Made by a program: the position numbers and the translations under genes | Shown: piece after piece, positions 53,158 to 61,115 of the stretch | How the letters are laid out: the number at the start of each line of letters is the position of its first letter | How positions within the stretch are numbered: the stretch's first letter is position 1 | NCBI GenBank assembly: GCA_963664705.1 | Contig: OY761556.1 | Span: 2,176,001-2,240,000, forward strand | DNA length: 64,000 bases | Source of the DNA: Acidobacteriota bacterium | GTDB taxonomy: Bacteria; Acidobacteriota; UBA6911 | Reading direction: 5' to 3' | The notes under the pieces: generated by a model | The model's database searches: none | The model's input: the letters and a program-made list of their open reading frames with translations, nothing else | What the model was told of the DNA's origin: nothing

Positions 53158-55005
53158 TTAGCGAAGGCTGGTGCCGGAAGCCGACGCCCCTGCTATCAGC
53201 AGGATCTGACGGGGCTCCTTGAATCCGCTGATCGTTTTAACAGTAGAAAGCGTTGCTCCATCCAATAGATAGACATTATCGGCATCAAAGTTGACGGCAT
53301 ACCTGTTATCCGGCGTATACAGACAATGTGCCAGCCATTTCTGATCCAGCAGCTTCTCATTGGTGGCCAGATCCACCACTTCCATGCGGTACGATGCTTT
53401 GCTTGTGAAACCTATGTGGGAGCCGACGACATACAGAACCGGCTTCTGACCTGAAGCGGTTGGAGGCATGAATCCATAGTGGGAATTGAATGGAAGCCTG
53501 ATGGAAGCAATTTTTTTATAGCTCTTGAGATCGACGACAAACACGCGCGCCAGCATCATCATATAGACGTACTGATCGGAGCGATCCACGATAGAGGTCG
53601 CGTATTGGATCGTCGGTCCCTGCGGCACAAAGGCCGGAGCAATCGGGACGCCCGCAATGGCGGATCCGGCGCCGGCAATGCCACCGGTAACCATGGCAAC
53701 CGCCATGATGCTTCCGAAGGCTCGCAAACCGGAAATAATGTCGATCATGCCCTTCACTTTGAAATTTTCGAGATCGAGCACCGAGGACTCATCATCATTT
53801 GCGTATCCGAGAGCCGCGGTGCTTTCCTTTGAATCCATGGCCAGGGTGGAGGGCGGGCGGTCCTTGCTGCCATTTTCCCAAAAGCCTCTCGTCCGGTGCG
53901 GCGTTGGTATGCTGCCCACCAGTTTCAGCGTGTCCAGATCAATGGCCTGCACGGAGTCATAGCACACGAGATATAACCGATGGGTTTTCGGCGCCAGATT
54001 GGCCTGCATGATGATGTCGGGAATCTCAATCTCCGCTTTCAGTTCCTTCTTCGCAAAAGCAAACAGCGTGGACTTCCCTGTTTTCCCAATACGCGAAATC
54101 AAGGTTAAACCCGTGGCCGGATCCGTCAGCGCATCGACAAGGGAAAACCCGCCATCAATGCTCTGCACCAGTCCGCGCTGGGCGGCAGAAACTATGTGCA
54201 GATGCGCCTGCCCGGGCTCCTTGATTTTGTTGCCATCGTCCGCCAGAACAAAAACATGATCGCCATCGACAGAAGCCGCCAATTCCCGAGGAATGCCGGG
54301 CAGAGAAAGCTCCTTGGAGTCCGCAAGATTGGCGAGATTGAACAGGAGCAGATTGTGACCGGCGCTGGTCTTTTTGTCCTGCGTTCTCTTCCCGTAAAGA
54401 ACTGCCGCCCGATCGGAAGATACTCGGAGAATGGGATCCACTTCTCCCGGCTTGCACGGCAATGTCTGACGGCCGGAAATTGCTCCTTTGGCAATGTCTA
54501 TCTGCACTATTTCCGGATTTTTATCCTTCACGCCCCAGGCCAGCAAAGTTATAAAACGGCCGGAACTGTCCCACATGGCATTGATTTCTGCCTGCGGCCA
54601 TAGAAGAAAAGGATGGGCGACCGCATTCCAGCCGATATCGTCCAGCCGGGCGATCCGTTTCATATCCCGAGTATCCAAAATACTCAGAGAGTTGGGCTTT
54701 CCAAACCTGATGATGGGCAGCCCCTTTTGCCTTCGCTCCGCAAGCCGCTCTTTGTCGTCATACTCAAAAACCAGAAGCCTGGAACCATCGGGGCTCAGAG
54801 CCATCAGGGTTGGCGTTTTTTCCAAAACAACAGTTTCCGAAATCGTCCCCCCGGGAAGCGCTATCGATTCCACGCTCTTCTTTTCCGCATCCAAAACATA
54901 TGCTCGGAACTCTTCAGGATTTCCCAATAAAAACTGCGCATTCATGGGCAGAACGAGCGCAAGGACAATTACCGCACATAGTATTTGCCTGGTTCTGACG
55001 GACAT
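53158..55005 (-). CDS. Secreted YncE/YVTN-like beta-propeller protein
   Basis: Signal peptide; repeated blade-like motifs (P..MALSPDGSRLLV, PRELAASVDGDHVFV, VQAIDLDTLKLVGSI, YTPDNRY). Confidence 0.65.
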   Translation of the reverse strand: MSVRTRQILCAVIVLALVLPMNAQFLLGNPEEFRAYVLDAEKKSVESIALPGGTISETVVLEKTPTLMALSPDGSRLLVFEYDDKERLAERRQKGLPIIRFGKPNSLSILDTRDMKRIARLDDIGWNAVAHPFLLWPQAEINAMWDSSGRFITLLAWGVKDKNPEIVQIDIAKGAISGRQTLPCKPGEVDPILRVSSDRAAVLYGKRTQDKKTSAGHNLLLFNLANLADSKELSLPGIPRELAASVDGDHVFVLADDGNKIKEPGQAHLHIVSAAQRGLVQSIDGGFSLVDALTDPATGLTLISRIGKTGKSTLFAFAKKELKAEIEIPDIIMQANLAPKTHRLYLVCYDSVQAIDLDTLKLVGSIPTPHRTRGFWENGSKDRPPSTLAMDSKESTAALGYANDDESSVLDLENFKVKGMIDIISGLRAFGSIMAVAMVTGGIAGAGSAIAGVPIAPAFVPQGPTIQYATSIVDRSDQYVYMMMLARVFVVDLKSYKKIASIRLPFNSHYGFMPPTASGQKPVLYVVGSHIGFTSKASYRMEVVDLATNEKLLDQKWLAHCLYTPDNRYAVNFDADNVYLLDGATLSTVKTISGFKEPRQILLIAGASASGTSLR

Positions 55006-55296
55006 AAGGAGGACGCTCCTTTCGCGTGCTGAATCCTGCAACAAAACACATGGGGCTTGGTTGAATGGCACAATTACCCCGGCCATGGACCGAACCGCCG
55101 GAGATGGAAAGGAAGCGCATCCCCGTAGAGATAGGAGATTGCATTCAGGCTTGGCTTCCGATTGAAGATCTGATTGTAAAGCGAAATACGCCCTATATAA
55201 AACAGGAATCTAATATTCTACCCATAGCTCACTTTGAATGCTTACCGATTGATTGTAGGGGATAATCTTGATTTGCCAGCCCGGCCTCCCCAATAG

Positions 55297-55344
55297 TGTA
55301 AACAAATGCGACATCCAGTACACCAGTTGTCGGATAGTTTTACA
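55297..55344. promoter_or_regulatory. Two TGT-N11-ACA enhancer boxes (PEP-CTERM box type)
   Basis: TGTAAACAAATGCGACA at 55297-55313 and TGTCGGATAGTTTTACA at 55328-55344. Confidence 0.7.
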
Positions 55345-55443
55345 AATATTCCTGTTCCCATGCCAGGAATTGGACAATATCATTAAGATGCAAACTACTT
55401 ATTTTCAATATTTTATCAAATATATGCAATGCCTGATAGCGTG

Positions 55444-55458
55444 TGGCACATATATTGC
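55444..55458 (+). promoter_or_regulatory. sigma54 promoter
   Basis: TGGCAC-ATATA-TTGC, a consensus -24/-12 site. Confidence 0.85.
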
Positions 55459-55529
55459 GTTTAAGAGAAGAAAGTTATTTTTACCTTTGGTTTTTTGGTT
55501 GAGAGCTTTGCTTTTCGGGAGGAGGAGAA

Positions 55530-56264
55530 ATGAAGAGATTCTTTATGTTGATGGTATTGGCTATCTTAACCGTCACAGCGGCGCAGGCAGCCACGATTTA
55601 TTTTGGAGAGGACTTGAATAACAGCAATAGCGTGCCGCTAGCGTCTTACCCAAACGCTTCCGCAGCTTCTGCCAGCTTCTTATCAAATCTGGTAGGCACT
55701 GGGACGGAGACTTTTGAGGGCATATCGGGATCCGCGCCGGTTACGCTTACATTTCCAGGAGCAGGCACTGCAACATTGAGCGGATCCGGGTCAATAGTGA
55801 GTGTAACACCCGGCTCCACCAATGGATTTGGGCGTTATGCGATTTCCGGTTCCAAATATTGGGAAGTTGAAGTCAATAGCTCAACTACGCCTGCATTTAC
55901 TATTAGTTTTTCAGATCCTGTTGCCGCTTTCGGGTTTTTTGGTGTTGATATTGGTGACTTTGGCGGCCAAATCGGTTTAACCTTTGCCAACGGCACAACA
56001 CAAACCTACCTCGTTAACAATACCGTAGGCTCAGGCGGCAGCATTGATGGCTCAGTTCTTTTTTGGGGCATTATCGATACGCAAAATCCTTTCACCAGCG
56101 TATCCTTTACTGACACCAACATCAGCGATGTTTTCGCATTTGACAATATGACAATCGGTTCTGTAGAACAGGTCAATCCCACTGTCCCAGAACCAACATC
56201 GATACTTCTCCTCACCACCGGTATTATGGGAATCGGCCTGGCCGCATGGCGCAGAAAGAAATAG
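55530..56264 (+). CDS. PEP-CTERM surface protein 1
   Basis: Signal peptide (AQA|A), Ser/Thr/Gly-rich body, VPEPTS + TM + WRRKK. Confidence 0.93.
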   Translation: MKRFFMLMVLAILTVTAAQAATIYFGEDLNNSNSVPLASYPNASAASASFLSNLVGTGTETFEGISGSAPVTLTFPGAGTATLSGSGSIVSVTPGSTNGFGRYAISGSKYWEVEVNSSTTPAFTISFSDPVAAFGFFGVDIGDFGGQIGLTFANGTTQTYLVNNTVGSGGSIDGSVLFWGIIDTQNPFTSVSFTDTNISDVFAFDNMTIGSVEQVNPTVPEPTSILLLTTGIMGIGLAAWRRKK

Positions 56265-56299
56265 GACGCCATCTCCAATAGGATTCTTCAGTGATTTAA

Positions 56300-56332
56300 A
56301 AAGGCCGCTCATCGCAGCGGCCTTTGTTTTTT
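56300..56332 (+). terminator. Intrinsic terminator
   Basis: AAAGGCCGCT/AGCGGCCTTT stem followed by a T-run. Confidence 0.85.
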
Positions 56333-56402
56333 GGATTTACCTTTTCGCCGCACCTCCTGCCTGATTTCCCTGCGTTGTTTTCATAACCAATGCCGGCACT
56401 TG

Positions 56403-56510
56403 CCTCAAGGAATACTGGCTGTGGCAGTCGGAGGGAAAGCGCAAACCACCTGGTTCGCAACCGATTTAGACTCGGCCGCTGCGTTCTCATTGATAGCTGG
56501 AGAATAGCAG
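56403..56510 (+). pseudogene. Relic 3' end of a second copy of the selenoprotein gene
   Basis: Aligns by eye to 59955-60062 (PQGILAVAVGGKAQTTWFATD vs PQGIQVVVVGGKTQSTWFATD) with small indels. Confidence 0.85.
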
Positions 56511-56940
56511 CAAAGCGTCTTGTGCTAGTTGTATGTTGAGGCCCACGGGAGCTTCGCTGTCTCTCCGATGCTTCTATTGCGAAGCCCTTCGAAGTGCGGG
56601 GCATCAAGCCGCCGCGCTCCACCGCTCCCATCGGGCGTGCCCAATGCGCACTTCCCAAAAACCCCGGCACTGTCCCCGAGCCCACTTCCCTCCTCCTTCC
56701 CGGAACAGGGACACTTGGGATAGGTCTGGCGTCATGGAGAAAGAGAAGCTAATTCCTTTCTTCCTAAAATCAATAAATGAAATGGGCTGCTCTCATAAAA
56801 GTGGCCTTTTTTAAGTTTTAACCTAGTCTGGCCTTGCCCCAATATAGCTCCCAAGGCATTCTCACCAGCCATTTTTATATATCTTATTGATTTTATTACA
56901 CATGACTCAATCTGATCACCGAATACCCGCCAAAATGTGG

Positions 56941-57055
56941 TGTCGGGATAGCTTACAATTATTCGTGAAGCGAATGAACAATGGAACTATCTTATTTTCT
57001 TTAGTTTATATAGATCGAATTCAGGGCAGGCCATCAGGTGTTGGTTTCTTTTACA
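56941..57055. promoter_or_regulatory. Two TGT-N11-ACA enhancer boxes
   Basis: TGTCGGGATAGCTTACA at 56941-56957 and TGTTGGTTTCTTTTACA at 57039-57055. Confidence 0.6.
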
Positions 57056-57238
57056 ACCGACAACTTTAGTAGTATGCTTGTAAGATACTGATAAATAATA
57101 TTTTATTCTGATTTTCCCAAAGATTTCCCTCTATCAAATCTACCATCCCCCGTCGCCGGTCAAATCAACAACAGTATGTACTTTATTTACAATATATTAC
57201 CTCGCATTGCCTCAAGTTAGATTCAAACAAAAGCTATT

Positions 57239-57253
57239 TGGCATGCAAGTTGC
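57239..57253 (+). promoter_or_regulatory. sigma54 promoter
   Basis: TGGCAT-GCAAG-TTGC. Confidence 0.82.
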
Positions 57254-57354
57254 ATTTATCAGGTTGAATCTCGCAATAATGAAATTCGGAATTTATTGCG
57301 CAAATTGTGTCAAACCAGCAAAGAATCTTGGCTGGAAGAGGGGGGAATAAAGCG

Positions 57355-58125
57355 ATGACAAAATTGGCCATAGCGTTATCAGTGGTAGTGCTTTTAACAA
57401 CAGCGGCAATTGCGGCACCAATTCCAGCTGGCTATACCTGCACCGGAAACTGCGGCACAATGGGAGCAAGCGGCGTTGTAACGCTCTCTCCCTACGGCAG
57501 CGCTGCTTACATGTATATTTCCACCGAAAGCGGCTTGGGTGGAGTAGGGGGAACCCCTACCGGCGGAGTGGTCGGAACCAATGGTACGCTGCTCGTGTCG
57601 CCTGTTTTCTCAGCCAATGTCGATGACATATTGGCCTTCTACTTTAATTACGTAACCAGCGATGGCAGTGGGTATCCCGATTTCGCATGGGCAGCCGTGG
57701 CGGATCCATCGCTGACAAGTGTAACCTATCTGGTCACAGCTAAAACGCTCCCTTCCGGAAGCATTATTCCCGGTCAGGGAATGCCAGCCATTGATGCAAC
57801 TCTTACGCCTCCCTCAGTTCCAATCATTGGTGGAGGGCCATTATGGAATGCTCTTGGTGGTTCCTCGGGCTCATGCTGGGCGGCTGGTTGTGGCTATACC
57901 GGCTGGGTTTTGTCCGAATACAAAATTCCTACGGCGGGCGACTATGTTCTCGCATTCGGCGTTATGAACGCCAACGATTTAGCCTATCAATCCGGTCTTG
58001 CAATTGATGGCGCCACCATCGCCGGCAAGCCCATCGAAGGCACAGTTCCAGAACCGACATCGCTGCTTCTTCTCGGCACCGGCCTGAGCGCAATCGGCCT
58101 GGCCGCATGGCGCAGAAAGAAATAA
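57355..58125 (+). CDS. PEP-CTERM surface protein 2
   Basis: Signal peptide (AIA|A), Gly/Thr-rich body with two Cys pairs, VPEPTS + TM + WRRKK. Confidence 0.93.
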   Translation: MTKLAIALSVVVLLTTAAIAAPIPAGYTCTGNCGTMGASGVVTLSPYGSAAYMYISTESGLGGVGGTPTGGVVGTNGTLLVSPVFSANVDDILAFYFNYVTSDGSGYPDFAWAAVADPSLTSVTYLVTAKTLPSGSIIPGQGMPAIDATLTPPSVPIIGGGPLWNALGGSSGSCWAAGCGYTGWVLSEYKIPTAGDYVLAFGVMNANDLAYQSGLAIDGATIAGKPIEGTVPEPTSLLLLGTGLSAIGLAAWRRKK

Positions 58126-58160
58126 GGCACCATCTCCAATAGGATTCTTCGCTGATTTTC

Positions 58161-58194
58161 AAAGGCCGCTCATCGCAGCGGCCTTTGTTTTTTT
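58161..58194 (+). terminator. Intrinsic terminator (duplicate of 56300-56332)
   Basis: Identical stem-loop and T-run. Confidence 0.85.
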
Positions 58195-58310
58195 GACATA
58201 CTTTTTCGCCGCACCTCTTGCCTGGCTTCCCTGCATCATTTTCATAACCAATGCCGAAAGCTCTTTGATCCGGCTCCGCCAAAAGCTAAGATCGCCGTTG
58301 GAGGACGGTT

Positions 58311-60059
58311 ATGAAACGAAACGGTGCGCTCATTGCTGCCATTCTCTCGATCACAGTCCTATCGATTGCGGTCCCCAGCCCCTCGCAACAAAGCCCAAAT
58401 ACCTTGATTACAGTCCTGAACCCGGCCGTGGCCAACCGACTCGCCGAAAGGCTTCCCCTGGCCCCGCGCCTGGGCACGCTGCAAAACAAAACCATCTATA
58501 TGGTCGATATCAACTGGGGAGGCCCCGAAGCCGCCCTGAGCATCTTTGAAGAAATGCAGGGATGGTTCGCCAGGAACATGCCCACGGTGAAGACGGTTAT
58601 CCGAATGAAACGGGGCGGATATGAAACCGACGATCCGGCCTTATGGAAGGAAATCAAGGAGAATGGAGGAAGCGCGGTCATTCTCGGCGTTTCCGGCTGA
58701 GATGGTTGTACGTCGGCCTTGAGTCGACATGCCCGAACCCTCGAACAGCAATTCAGGATCCCAACGGTCGGCATCGCGGGAAACAATATTGTCGGCTATG
58801 CCACCGGCTATGATTTTCTATATTCCAACGGATGCCCCATCCGCTACATCGCCCTCCCCTTCCCGGTCGCCGGCCAGCCCAAATCCGTGCACAGGCAATA
58901 TGTCGAAGGCAAGGATCTCGTTTCCGGCAAGCAGACCATGCAAGCGGTCGTGGATGCTTTAACTCTTCCGTTAACGGACAATGAAAAAATCAAAGGCATC
59001 CCGCCCGAAGCCAAGGCCGAGCCGAGATTCCTCCGCCCCGATACAGAGGAAAAACTCCAGCGCCTTTTCAAAGACCAGGGCTGGACAGACTACTATCCTG
59101 TTACCCTTCCCACCGAAAAAAGAGTCGCGCAAATGCTCCGGGCCAGCAGTCATAAGCCCGACGAAGTCGTGAAGGTGGTCACCTGGCCCGGCGGCGCCAG
59201 GCCGTTGACCGTCGAAAAGGCCGCGATCTGCGCCGTTATGGCCGGAGCCAGGCCGGAATATTTCCCAGTGATCCTGGCGCTTGCAACCACCGTGCCCTTT
59301 GGCAATTCCACTACGTCAATGGCAAACATGATTGTGGTTAATGGGCCCATCCGCAATAAAATCGGCATGAATTCCGGCGGCCATGCATTGGGACCCTACA
59401 ACGAAGCCAACTCCATCATCGGGCGCAGTCTTACTTTGATGTCCAAAACCGCCGGCGGCCTTCGCAACCGCATCACCACCTGGAGCTCACTGGGAAATAA
59501 TCTCCAATACAACAATCTCTGCTTTGCCGAAAACGAAGAGGAGCTCCCGGCCGGATGGGACCCTCTTCATGTGGGCATGGGATTCCGCCCGGAAGAGAGC
59601 GTGGTTACGGTGGGAGTCGGCTGGAGCTCCATATCGAGCGTGGGATCGGTTCAGCATCTATATCCCCCGCAAATGCTGATCCGGGATTATATGAAATCCC
59701 TTTCAGCCCAAGGCTCCTCGGCTACGATCCTCATGGATCCTACAGTCGCGGCGCTTCTCAAGAATGCTCACGGATTTCAATCCAAGCAAAGTTTATCTCA
59801 ATGGCTGTCCCAGAATGTGGAGAAGACTGCGGAATCATACTGGGGGAATGCGGTAGTCGCCAGCGTCAGCGCTTCCCTGGCCATGCAGGGCCTGGAACCC
59901 TATGCAACGTGGAAGAACCTTCCTGCGGCGGCGCTGATCAAGCCCTTTAACCAGCCGCAAGGAATACAGGTTGTGGTAGTCGGTGGGAAAACGCAAAGCA
60001 CCTGGTTCGCAACCGATTTCAGGCTCGGCCGCGGCGTTCTCGTCGATAGCTGGAGATAG
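58311..60059 (+). CDS. Exported UGSC-family-like selenoprotein (582 aa, Sec130, U-D-G-C)
   Basis: ORFs 58311-58700 and 58719-60059 are in one frame, separated only by TGA 58698-58700. Read-through gives ILGVSG-U-DGCTS (UxxC). A hairpin follows at 58708-58732. Confidence 0.8.
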
Positions 60060-60148
60060 CAGGCCTTGTGCATCGCAGCCTCGGGGACTAGCTTTGCCTT
60101 CCAATCATCGGCCACTTTTGTCCCCGAAGCTATTCATTGGCAAAGCCT

Positions 60149-60460
60149 CTATTTGGATACCTTGATTGTGGCTTCCTTGGGAAGCGCCAATCCCGATGCA
60201 ACCTCAATGGCTTTGATGATCCCTACCGGGACGGGACAAGCGGCATGAAAACAGTGCTTTTGACCCATCTGGAGCGTCTGCGGAATTGCACGCTTGCAGG
60301 AGATCTCCTGGTAGGGATTCACCTCGGCAAGTTCTTTGGCCAAATTTTGAATAGCCTGGCAATCGCTTGTAATGCTCAGTTTACACACCTTCCCTTCCAT
60401 TGTCGCTTCGACTGTTGCGGTGTGCCCACAAATTCCCGCACTGATTTCCGTCTTGGCCAT
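60149..60460 (-). CDS. Small Cys-containing protein (DUF6951-like)
   Basis: AGICG, ITSDC and HAACPVPVGIIKAIEVA.GLALP motifs. Confidence 0.7.
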   Translation of the reverse strand: MAKTEISAGICGHTATVEATMEGKVCKLSITSDCQAIQNLAKELAEVNPYQEISCKRAIPQTLQMGQKHCFHAACPVPVGIIKAIEVASGLALPKEATIKVSK

Positions 60461-60683
60461 GCCTTTCCCTCCATACACGCAAGCGTCTTTGTTACCCCTG
60501 TAATAGTCTGTTTTCATTATACAGGCATTTCCCTCGCCCGGAGCTTTTATCTTGCACGGAAAGGAATGCCGGCGCTTCCAGCAGATCCTCAATCAAACAA
60601 ATTTCTTTTCCGGTAGGCGATTTCCCGCCATTTGCGTTCTTGGTTAATGGAGCACTCATGCAACGCAGAGAAGGGAGATCCCG

Positions 60684-61115
60684 GTGTCTGATGCACTGAT
60701 AACGTCCACATTGCAGGCCCAAACAATCAGGCAGACCTTCAGCAACGTAATAGCGGGCCGCCGAAAACAGCTCACTCTTGATGGCATCGATGCGCTTCCA
60801 CAACTTCCCGGGTTCCGCATCCGTTCCCATGATCCCTACGGCCCCCTGCCCGAAATTCAAATCAGGGACACGGGAGATCGGGAGCCTATTTTGAATGCGG
60901 TCAAACAGGAGGCGGCGCGGCTGTGTGCCATTGTATGGATTCGAGATGATATCGCGACCCTTTTCCCGGGATGCCGATTTCTCCTGCCCACCAAAACAGA
61001 TGAAGGCCCCCTTGTAGGAATGAGATTTGCAGGAATCACCGTTCTGGCAGAGCATAAAAATTGCTGGGAGGCGTATCACAAACTGCTCGACGCCGCAGTG
61101 GATAGGATTTTGTGA
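60684..61115 (+). CDS. Hypothetical protein
   Basis: GGGAG RBS with GTG start; protein-like composition. Confidence 0.55.
   Translation: MSDALITSTLQAQTIRQTFSNVIAGRRKQLTLDGIDALPQLPGFRIRSHDPYGPLPEIQIRDTGDREPILNAVKQEAARLCAIVWIRDDIATLFPGCRFLLPTKTDEGPLVGMRFAGITVLAEHKNCWEAYHKLLDAAVDRIL

Follow-up and report, generated by a model that had tools for sequence, protein, structure and literature searches.

Does the in-frame UGA that divides two neighbouring open reading frames of this acidobacterial contig end one gene, or is it read as selenocysteine (Sec) within a single longer gene, and what might the product of such a gene do? In the window (the whole 64,000-nt stretch of DNA that was analysed), the upstream frame occupies 58311-58700 (+), starts with an ATG preceded by an RBS-like GGAGGA (58300-58305, +) and would encode 129 amino acids; the downstream frame, at 58719-60059, lies in the same frame, would encode 446 amino acids and has a TTG start. 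As the original prediction had it, the two are joined across the UGA (GTT TCC GGC TGA GAT GGT TGT ACG TCG GCC TTG, 58689-58721), and read-through yields a single gene of 582 codons with one in-frame UGA (58311-60059, +), whose product has its sole U at residue 130 (AVILGVSG-U-DGC) and a Cys at residue 133. The TTG, which lacks an evident RBS as predicted, falls inside the loop of a hairpin (GTCGGC-CTTGA-GTCGAC, 58712-58728, +) that starts 11 nt past the UGA. The region 58164-60600 is identical in contigs from two runs of one sample, an agreement that is not independent because this sample may be the source of the window.

Comparison across homologues strongly supports Sec insertion at this codon. 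The genome that contains the window (G000; a single contig of 6.89 Mb, 98% complete, with a 6% contamination flag) has 35 places that match the UGSC family model PF24696, 31 of them with one in-frame TGA. The TGA column is identical in the aligned paralogues, and a Cys follows at +3 in all 31 of the TGA-containing copies. Across 80 GTDB loci the family profile matched 119 rows, 83 of which cover the site; 76 of these carry TGA, 2 carry TGC (one Methanobacterium, one Pseudonocardia) and 5 carry something else, so that the suggested check for Cys or Sec at residue 130 came out in favour of read-through. A full-length homologue with 61% identity (P0031) is likewise listed with Cys at the Sec position, and the best match in each of 29 other genomes of the genus carries one TGA. 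Relative to an 82% orthologue (L043), which served as the reference for the pN/pS comparison, purifying selection acts on the gene both before and after the UGA (pN 0.07-0.09 and pS 0.73-0.82, with silent sites saturated), and amino-acid identity is 84-87% on either side. The 6 codons between the UGA and the TTG specify the same amino acids in L043, and over codons 131-141 amino-acid identity is 100% and pS falls to 0.24.

The genome also encodes the machinery for which the original prediction proposed a search, with two copies each of selA, selB, selD and tRNA-Sec, all above cut-off. The two Sec-insertion sets are divergent (SelA 41%, SelB 37% and SelD 49% identical); one is a compact selB-selA-selD-selC cluster with a Cys-form selD and the other is scattered and has a Sec-form selD (C1:3072623-3078305; also 3461774, 3657373, 2046792 and 6559014). 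Among the 29 other genomes of the genus, 27 have selA. Two selA genes are present in 5 of the 28 genus genomes with selA, including one (G002) whose orthologue of the gene also has a CUUGA hairpin loop. A further 72-nt tRNA-like sequence (G000:C1:1625651-1625722, -) was called SeC (tca) by ARAGORN and was not matched by RF01852, and is doubtful.

By itself the hairpin is unremarkable (z of -1.2 against shuffles and -0.7 against synonymous recoding). Its 6 bp stem, 5 nt loop, 17 nt UGA-to-loop distance and -14.2 kcal/mol for 50 nt nevertheless all fall within the bacterial SECIS consensus as given in the available text of PMC13188914 (stem 4-16 bp, loop 3-9 nt, UGA-to-loop 16-37 nt, at most -7.5 kcal/mol). 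The same text asks for a G at loop position one or two and allows exceptions; the loop here, CUUGA, departs from this, and is common to 6 of 103 distinct sequences, most close relatives having CGUGA. Across homologues, however, the hairpin is strongly conserved. In 36 distinct clade sequences, chosen via the amino-acid pattern of the gene's clade, pairing is 94%, compared to 48% (maximum 57%) in 500 synonymous recodings. In an alignment of 32 sequences, which as relatives are not independent, 96% of positions pair, two-sided changes occur in 4 of 6 pairs, and the covariation is reached by none of 500 shuffles. A fixed-register count over all 103 sequences gives only 59% pairing because the stem is displaced by 1-4 nt between subfamilies, and a best-stem count finds at least 6 bp in 64 of the 103 versus 14 expected. 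Five paralogues of the UGSC-K type have stems of only 2-4 bp at this position, and an Rfam scan of window positions 55000-61000 returned two chance-level rows and no SECIS model.

These observations have to be weighed against the simpler reading, in which the UGA is a true stop or a nonsense mutation and the frames are two separate genes. Public gene calls do split the gene (among 120 homologues listed, 119 are 360-448 aa long, which matches the part after the UGA, and span 62-77% of the query), UGSC and the C-domain are each also encoded by stand-alone genes elsewhere (15 N-only rows), and the hairpin loop is without the consensus G. However, a stop here would truncate PF24696 mid-motif, TGA or Cys is retained at the site across phyla, the spacer codons are conserved with silent sites frozen across the hairpin, and the only start of the supposed second gene is a TTG buried in that hairpin. 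We therefore regard two genes as very improbable. With TGA/Cys conservation, Sec machinery and a covarying hairpin all pointing the same way, the UGA at 58698-58700 (+) is very likely read as Sec, as originally proposed.

Membership in the UGSC family is borne out by a PF24696 score of 37.2 bits (gathering cut-off 25), whereas the NF041046 equivalog model scores 22.1 bits, far below its cut-off of 125. The UGSC domain (residues ~58-225; 58482-58985, +) is followed in one frame by an Unknown_1 domain (58986-60056, +) recognizable by the motifs WTD..P..PT, AVMAG, VNGP, GR and AENE, which were matched by eye to the text of Figure S1A in PMC2398784. In that publication Zhang and Gladyshev described the UGSC/Unknown_1 fusion in 2008, with its function given as unknown in the text available, so that the family and its fusion are already known. 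The product shares with the published fusion an N-terminal U-x-x-C domain and the C-domain stretch AVNAVMAG..PEY.P....NG, and differs from it in its signal peptide, its U-D-G-C spelling and an Ala in place of the marked Unknown_1 Cys (AMAGC); this residue is Ala313 here and Ala in 31 of the 35 paralogues, and Cys in 3. The genomes also differ in copy number, with dozens of copies per genome here versus one in the Olavius symbiont of PMC2398784, going by the part of that paper available. Both the UDGC variant and the fusion had been singled out as unusual. Neither is: UDGC is one of 16 spellings at the Sec site among 76 rows, where the motif varies freely, all 35 paralogues are fused, and such an arrangement is ordinary because the fusion has been in print since 2008. 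The gene taken alone is an ordinary family member.

The C-terminal half matched no Pfam or NCBIfam family. It divides into a conserved part (residues 245-435) and a variable part (436-582), with mean identities among paralogues of 47% and 26%, respectively. D260, M310 and R372 occur in 35 of 35 paralogues and S333, N367 and E407 in 34 of 35, and the paralogue alignment contains no invariant Cys or His in this domain. The variability of the distal half fits what would be expected of a substrate-binding part.

A predicted Sec-pathway signal peptide occupies residues ~1-25 (58311-58385, +). The N-terminus, called a signal peptide in the original prediction, shows n-, h- and c-regions when scored with a hydrophobicity heuristic (MKR, a 12-residue hydrophobicity of 2.8 and a small-residue c-region), the structural model places a low-confidence helix at residues 5-17, and the segment is only 27% identical to L043 versus 84-87% elsewhere. 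The product is thus quite likely exported via the Sec pathway. Similar signals recur in the family, with 27 of the 31 Sec paralogues having a signal-like hydrophobic segment, 1 a twin-arginine motif, 1 a borderline segment and 2 none. The sole twin-arginine-like paralogue (G000:C1:4058392; L027) sits on a long branch and adjoins a Mo hydroxylase gene. There is precedent for Sec proteins bearing signal peptides, in so far as the available texts describe them, in MccSep, a periplasmic polysulfide reductase once annotated as two genes (bioRxiv 10.1101/2025.11.18.688581), and in the exported Sec lipoproteins SaoC/SaoX (bioRxiv 10.1101/2022.07.06.499078); the UGSC product differs from these in having no haem motifs, and no sequence relation to them was shown. 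The open literature that we surveyed contains no report of UGSC signal peptides or of an expansion of the kind described below, though selenoproteome-survey tables outside that survey could list multi-copy UGSC. The fused exported form is almost invisible in protein databases because gene callers split these genes.

The U-x-x-C motif had been described as thioredoxin-like, and a Trx-like fold was also proposed for UGSC in the available text of PMC2398784; the model obtained here is instead flavodoxin-like. An AlphaFold2 prediction from an 88-row alignment (pLDDT 92) shows, over residues 61-182, five strands in strict alternation with helices; U130 closes strand 3, and C133 falls in the opening turn of the helix that follows. 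In a thioredoxin fold a beta-hairpin follows the connecting helix, and the predicted model, which is not a solved structure, does not have this order of elements. Residues 58-225 match receiver, sugar-binding and flavodoxin-type domains with Z of 9-11, rmsd of 2.5-3.8 and 113-135 aligned residues among the best 50 matches listed, and neither thioredoxin nor GrdB/PrdB entries are among these 50, which speaks against neither of the two. A match of the flavodoxin/receiver type reflects a common arrangement and shows no function. PDB sequence searches returned nothing with the protein and, with the profile, a best E of 0.1 to an Asp/Glu racemase; Foldseek with the whole model gave a single row (E 7e-4, TM 0.19), and an ESM Atlas search with the Cys homologue P0031 gave one unnamed cluster at 0.78. 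The C-domain is modelled confidently (pLDDT 93) and alone had no Foldseek match at E of 0.001 or less, its best VIA match reaching Z 5.7, which does not by itself show a new or different fold.

The top structural match, chain 8s7v_H (Z 11.0, rmsd 3.8, 135 aligned), belongs to the activation complex of methyl-coenzyme M reductase, subunits of which bind Fe-S clusters via Cys and His (PMC12176620, as far as its available text goes). This raises the possibility that the protein binds or detoxifies metals, metalloids or Fe-S clusters, with U130 and C133 acting as ligands and not as a redox pair. That match, however, lies within 1 Z of sugar-binding, B12-binding and receiver domains, no further Cys or His is conserved, and four paralogues are without U, so we consider this role improbable. 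The four U-less paralogues (G000:C1:2729670, 2730440, 5838050 and 445600) include three without the second Cys, and 1 of the 4 has a signal-like segment.

A further relationship emerged from sequence profiles of the Sec subdomain. In a search of 21,724 sequences the N-domain profile ranks a true GrdB (579 bits on PF07355) with an E of 9e-6, and a profile-profile comparison with five PF07355 members gives 91.7% over 72 columns with U aligned on U. On the other hand, the other four PF07355 members reach only E 0.03-0.9 against the N-domain profile, the full-length profile gives only 60% against a single GrdB, and none of the 88 members has a PF07355 row at E up to 1. The Sec subdomain is thus probably a distant relative of GrdB/PrdB that lies outside PF07355, the likeness being short and motif-driven. 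What aligns, U on U, is a strand-U-x-x-C-helix-'E..GIP.V' subdomain; the differences are that only ~70 residues are alike, that the UGSC product is predicted to be exported, that it has another partner domain, and that it has no grd/prd neighbours. Predicted strand-helix alternation, flavodoxin/receiver-type matches and this probable GrdB/PrdB kinship together lead us to drop the thioredoxin-like assignment.

The main oddity of the gene is a genus-wide expansion that was beyond the view of a note made from the window alone. All 18 genomes drawn from the same genus have PF24696 matches, 9-45 in each, compared to 1 match in 2 of 12 genomes from other families of the class; among 200 other genomes of the phylum, in which up to 16 candidates were scored per genome, 17 have 1-2 matches and the remainder none. 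The closest named relatives are mostly Acidobacteriota. An unrooted FastTree phylogeny of 131 rows spreads the 35 paralogues over many deep clades, together with a few recent duplicates, and the deep clades are shared with Chloroflexota, Desulfobacterota-type and other genomes, indicating that the expansion mixes old lineages and new copies. A range of 9-45 copies per genome stands out against the largest bacterial selenoproteomes reported in the literature available, which comprise 57 and 63 genes for all families together.

If the gene encodes an exported selenoprotein, its neighbours may hold clues to its function. The original prediction placed it beside sigma54-controlled PEP-CTERM genes and suggested action on Cys-containing surface proteins. 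Sigma-54-like sites do precede both neighbours, one at 57239-57253 ahead of an NF038132-family gene (57355-58125, +) and one at 55444-55458 ahead of a second PEP-CTERM gene (55530-56264, +), but an intrinsic-terminator-like hairpin (58160-58197, +) separates the selenoprotein gene from them, and no sigma-54-like site was matched between them and the selenoprotein gene; both are probably not partners. A relic at 56180-56509 (+) has two duplicated parts: 216 nt that repeat the PEP-CTERM end with its terminator and spacer (86%) and, joined to these, a second version of the final ~105 nt of the selenoprotein gene (87-89%). It shows that the PEP-CTERM end, the terminator and the selenoprotein gene were once tandem-duplicated together, after which the first copy of the latter lost all but its last ~105 nt.

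That history, two adjoining PEP-CTERM genes, an exosortase in the genome, and the U-x-x-C motif combined with export would all suit a periplasmic thiol-disulfide oxidoreductase of exported proteins, such as Cys-bearing PEP-CTERM surface proteins. In addition, 3 of the 11 PEP-CTERM genes of the genome have a paralogue no more than 5 kb away (p 0.048), and DsbA-like genes are found near another clade in 8 Desulfobacterota-type loci. Two of those three genes are, however, this tandem pair, and a single immediate adjacency is what chance could give with 35 paralogues (p 0.18). The PEP-CTERM motif is found in 0 of 109 foreign loci (29 with 1.5-kb flanks only, and one spurious regex match set aside), the neighbours of orthologue L043 are genes for an amidohydrolase and for a secreted protein without assignment, no Cys is present in the first PEP-CTERM protein, and the predicted secondary structure is not thioredoxin-like. 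Together with the terminator and the confinement of sigma-54-like sites to the PEP-CTERM genes, this makes such a role improbable, and the proposed action on PEP-CTERM proteins is not supported. Desulfobacterota-type genomes (L077-L085, L090) have their copies of the USTC clade within a conserved gene block that also contains DsbA-like, transporter, TonB and C-D-R-x-C genes.

The reading that we favour, if only somewhat, is an exported or periplasmic Sec reductase of small molecules; the broader proposals of Sec read-through, predicted export and a redox role are supported. In other genomes the most suggestive neighbour is a rhodanese-like gene with Y-C-x-C or Y-C-x-U. It follows downstream at a distance of 12-107 bp, with unchanged strand, in 12 of the 80 loci; these 12 span four phyla, with representatives among Chloroflexota, Gammaproteobacteria, Acidobacteriota and Desulfobacterota-type genomes. 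Of the 12 partner genes, 4 have C-x-U, and 8 had themselves gone into the profile with which the set was found. All 10 rhodanese-linked rows in the tree fall within the 65-row clade of the gene, the tree's RHO label L087_2162 marking the wrong paralogue of its locus. The best family for this partner is NF041203 (rhodanese-related (seleno)protein), for which the partners reach 57-61 of 115 bits. No such gene lies beside the gene studied here or in the 1.5-kb flanks of 29 genus homologues. Seven rhodanese-like genes occur in the genome, 4 of them no farther than 10 kb from one paralogue or another (p 0.004) and none near this one. The partner seen in other genomes suggests that the substrate carries sulfur, as a persulfide, polysulfide or thiosulfate-type compound would, and such a substrate is our tentative first choice for this clade.

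Following this proposal, SelB would read the hairpin to insert Sec, the signal peptide would direct the protein out via the Sec pathway, and the U130 selenolate would attack a small molecule held by the C-terminal domain, as the selenolate of glycine and proline reductase B subunits attacks its substrate. By analogy with the distant GrdB/PrdB relatives, C133 would resolve the adduct to a selenenylsulfide, and a fragment or electrons could then be exchanged with the rhodanese-like C-x-C/U partner, a step suggested by gene order in other phyla. A dithiol fed by DsbD, of which the genome has one copy, would re-reduce the enzyme, and the 35 paralogues with their variable distal C-domains may represent versions for different substrates.

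The same chemistry could act on organic substrates, with GrdB/PrdB-like cleavage of C-N or C-O/C-S bonds in amino-acid, sugar or aromatic derivatives, and would then feed the many aldehyde oxidoreductases of the genome. This branch of the small-molecule explanation, our second choice, is in keeping with the GrdB/PrdB likeness, with 35 paralogues that average 26% identity in the distal C-domain, and with what surrounds the other paralogues. The neighbours of the 34 other copies are heterogeneous (105 of 122 flanking ORFs were scanned, 17 being over the size limit), with aldehyde:ferredoxin oxidoreductases, xanthine-dehydrogenase-type Mo enzymes, esterases and outer-membrane barrels recurring; 6, 5, 4 and 8 of the 22, 21, 16 and 35 genes of these families, respectively, lie within 5 kb of a paralogue. 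An unnamed secreted family with an N-terminal C-D-R-x-C (L132:7512-8498 and 28 places in G000), which has no Pfam or NCBIfam match, also clusters near paralogues: 16 of its 29 copies are within 15 kb of a UGSC paralogue versus 3.9 expected, and it also occurs in 17 foreign loci. Against this, the p values for neighbour families are inflated because the families were chosen after sighting and 3-5 seeds of each were counted, none of these families lies beside the gene studied here, and PF07355 has no match in the genome (the control was silent). Organic substrates thus appear rather unlikely for this protein. The family's chemistry could be put to a concrete bench test with the help of the naturally occurring Cys homologue, the rhodanese-like partner and the likeness to GrdB.

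At the level of the genus, one may speculate that the paralogues form a library of periplasmic selenium enzymes, in which a GrdB-related Sec module fused to a substrate-binding domain occurs in dozens of versions per genome, accompanied by secreted partners that expanded along with it and by a second Sec-insertion system. Were this to hold, the library would represent an undescribed class of enzymes that cleave bonds reductively outside the cytoplasm, with an undescribed C-domain fold, and a single family would account for most of one of the largest bacterial selenoproteomes. A genome-wide selenoprotein count by coding score gave 502 candidates and was rejected as too noisy, its motif-filtered output providing leads only.

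Several further features of the window and its genome deserve mention. A DUF6951 gene is convergent with the selenoprotein gene (60149-60502, -) and encodes C-P-V-P and further Cys/His residues. The largest cluster obtained in the neighbour analysis consisted of antisense shadows and was discarded. The genome has 34 frames with three or more CxxCH motifs, in addition to its ~22 aldehyde:ferredoxin oxidoreductase-like genes, ~21 xanthine-dehydrogenase-type genes and 35 large outer-membrane barrels. A second unnamed secreted family of ~200 aa (L145:6661-7272 and paralogues) has 9 copies, 8 of which either overlap a UGSC paralogue or are at most 23 bp away from one; the paralogues concerned belong mostly to the USSC/USTC clades. 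Finally, motif searches point to further likely Sec sites near G000:C1 3151564, 4261972, 45074, 4666877, 4399622, 3616594 and 5881613 (all -), which we take to belong to a thioredoxin-like protein (WUPQC), an AhpF-N-like protein (TUPYC), an MvhD-like protein (CCEFU), two rhodaneses (YCTU), a UGC protein and a GTUGRC protein.
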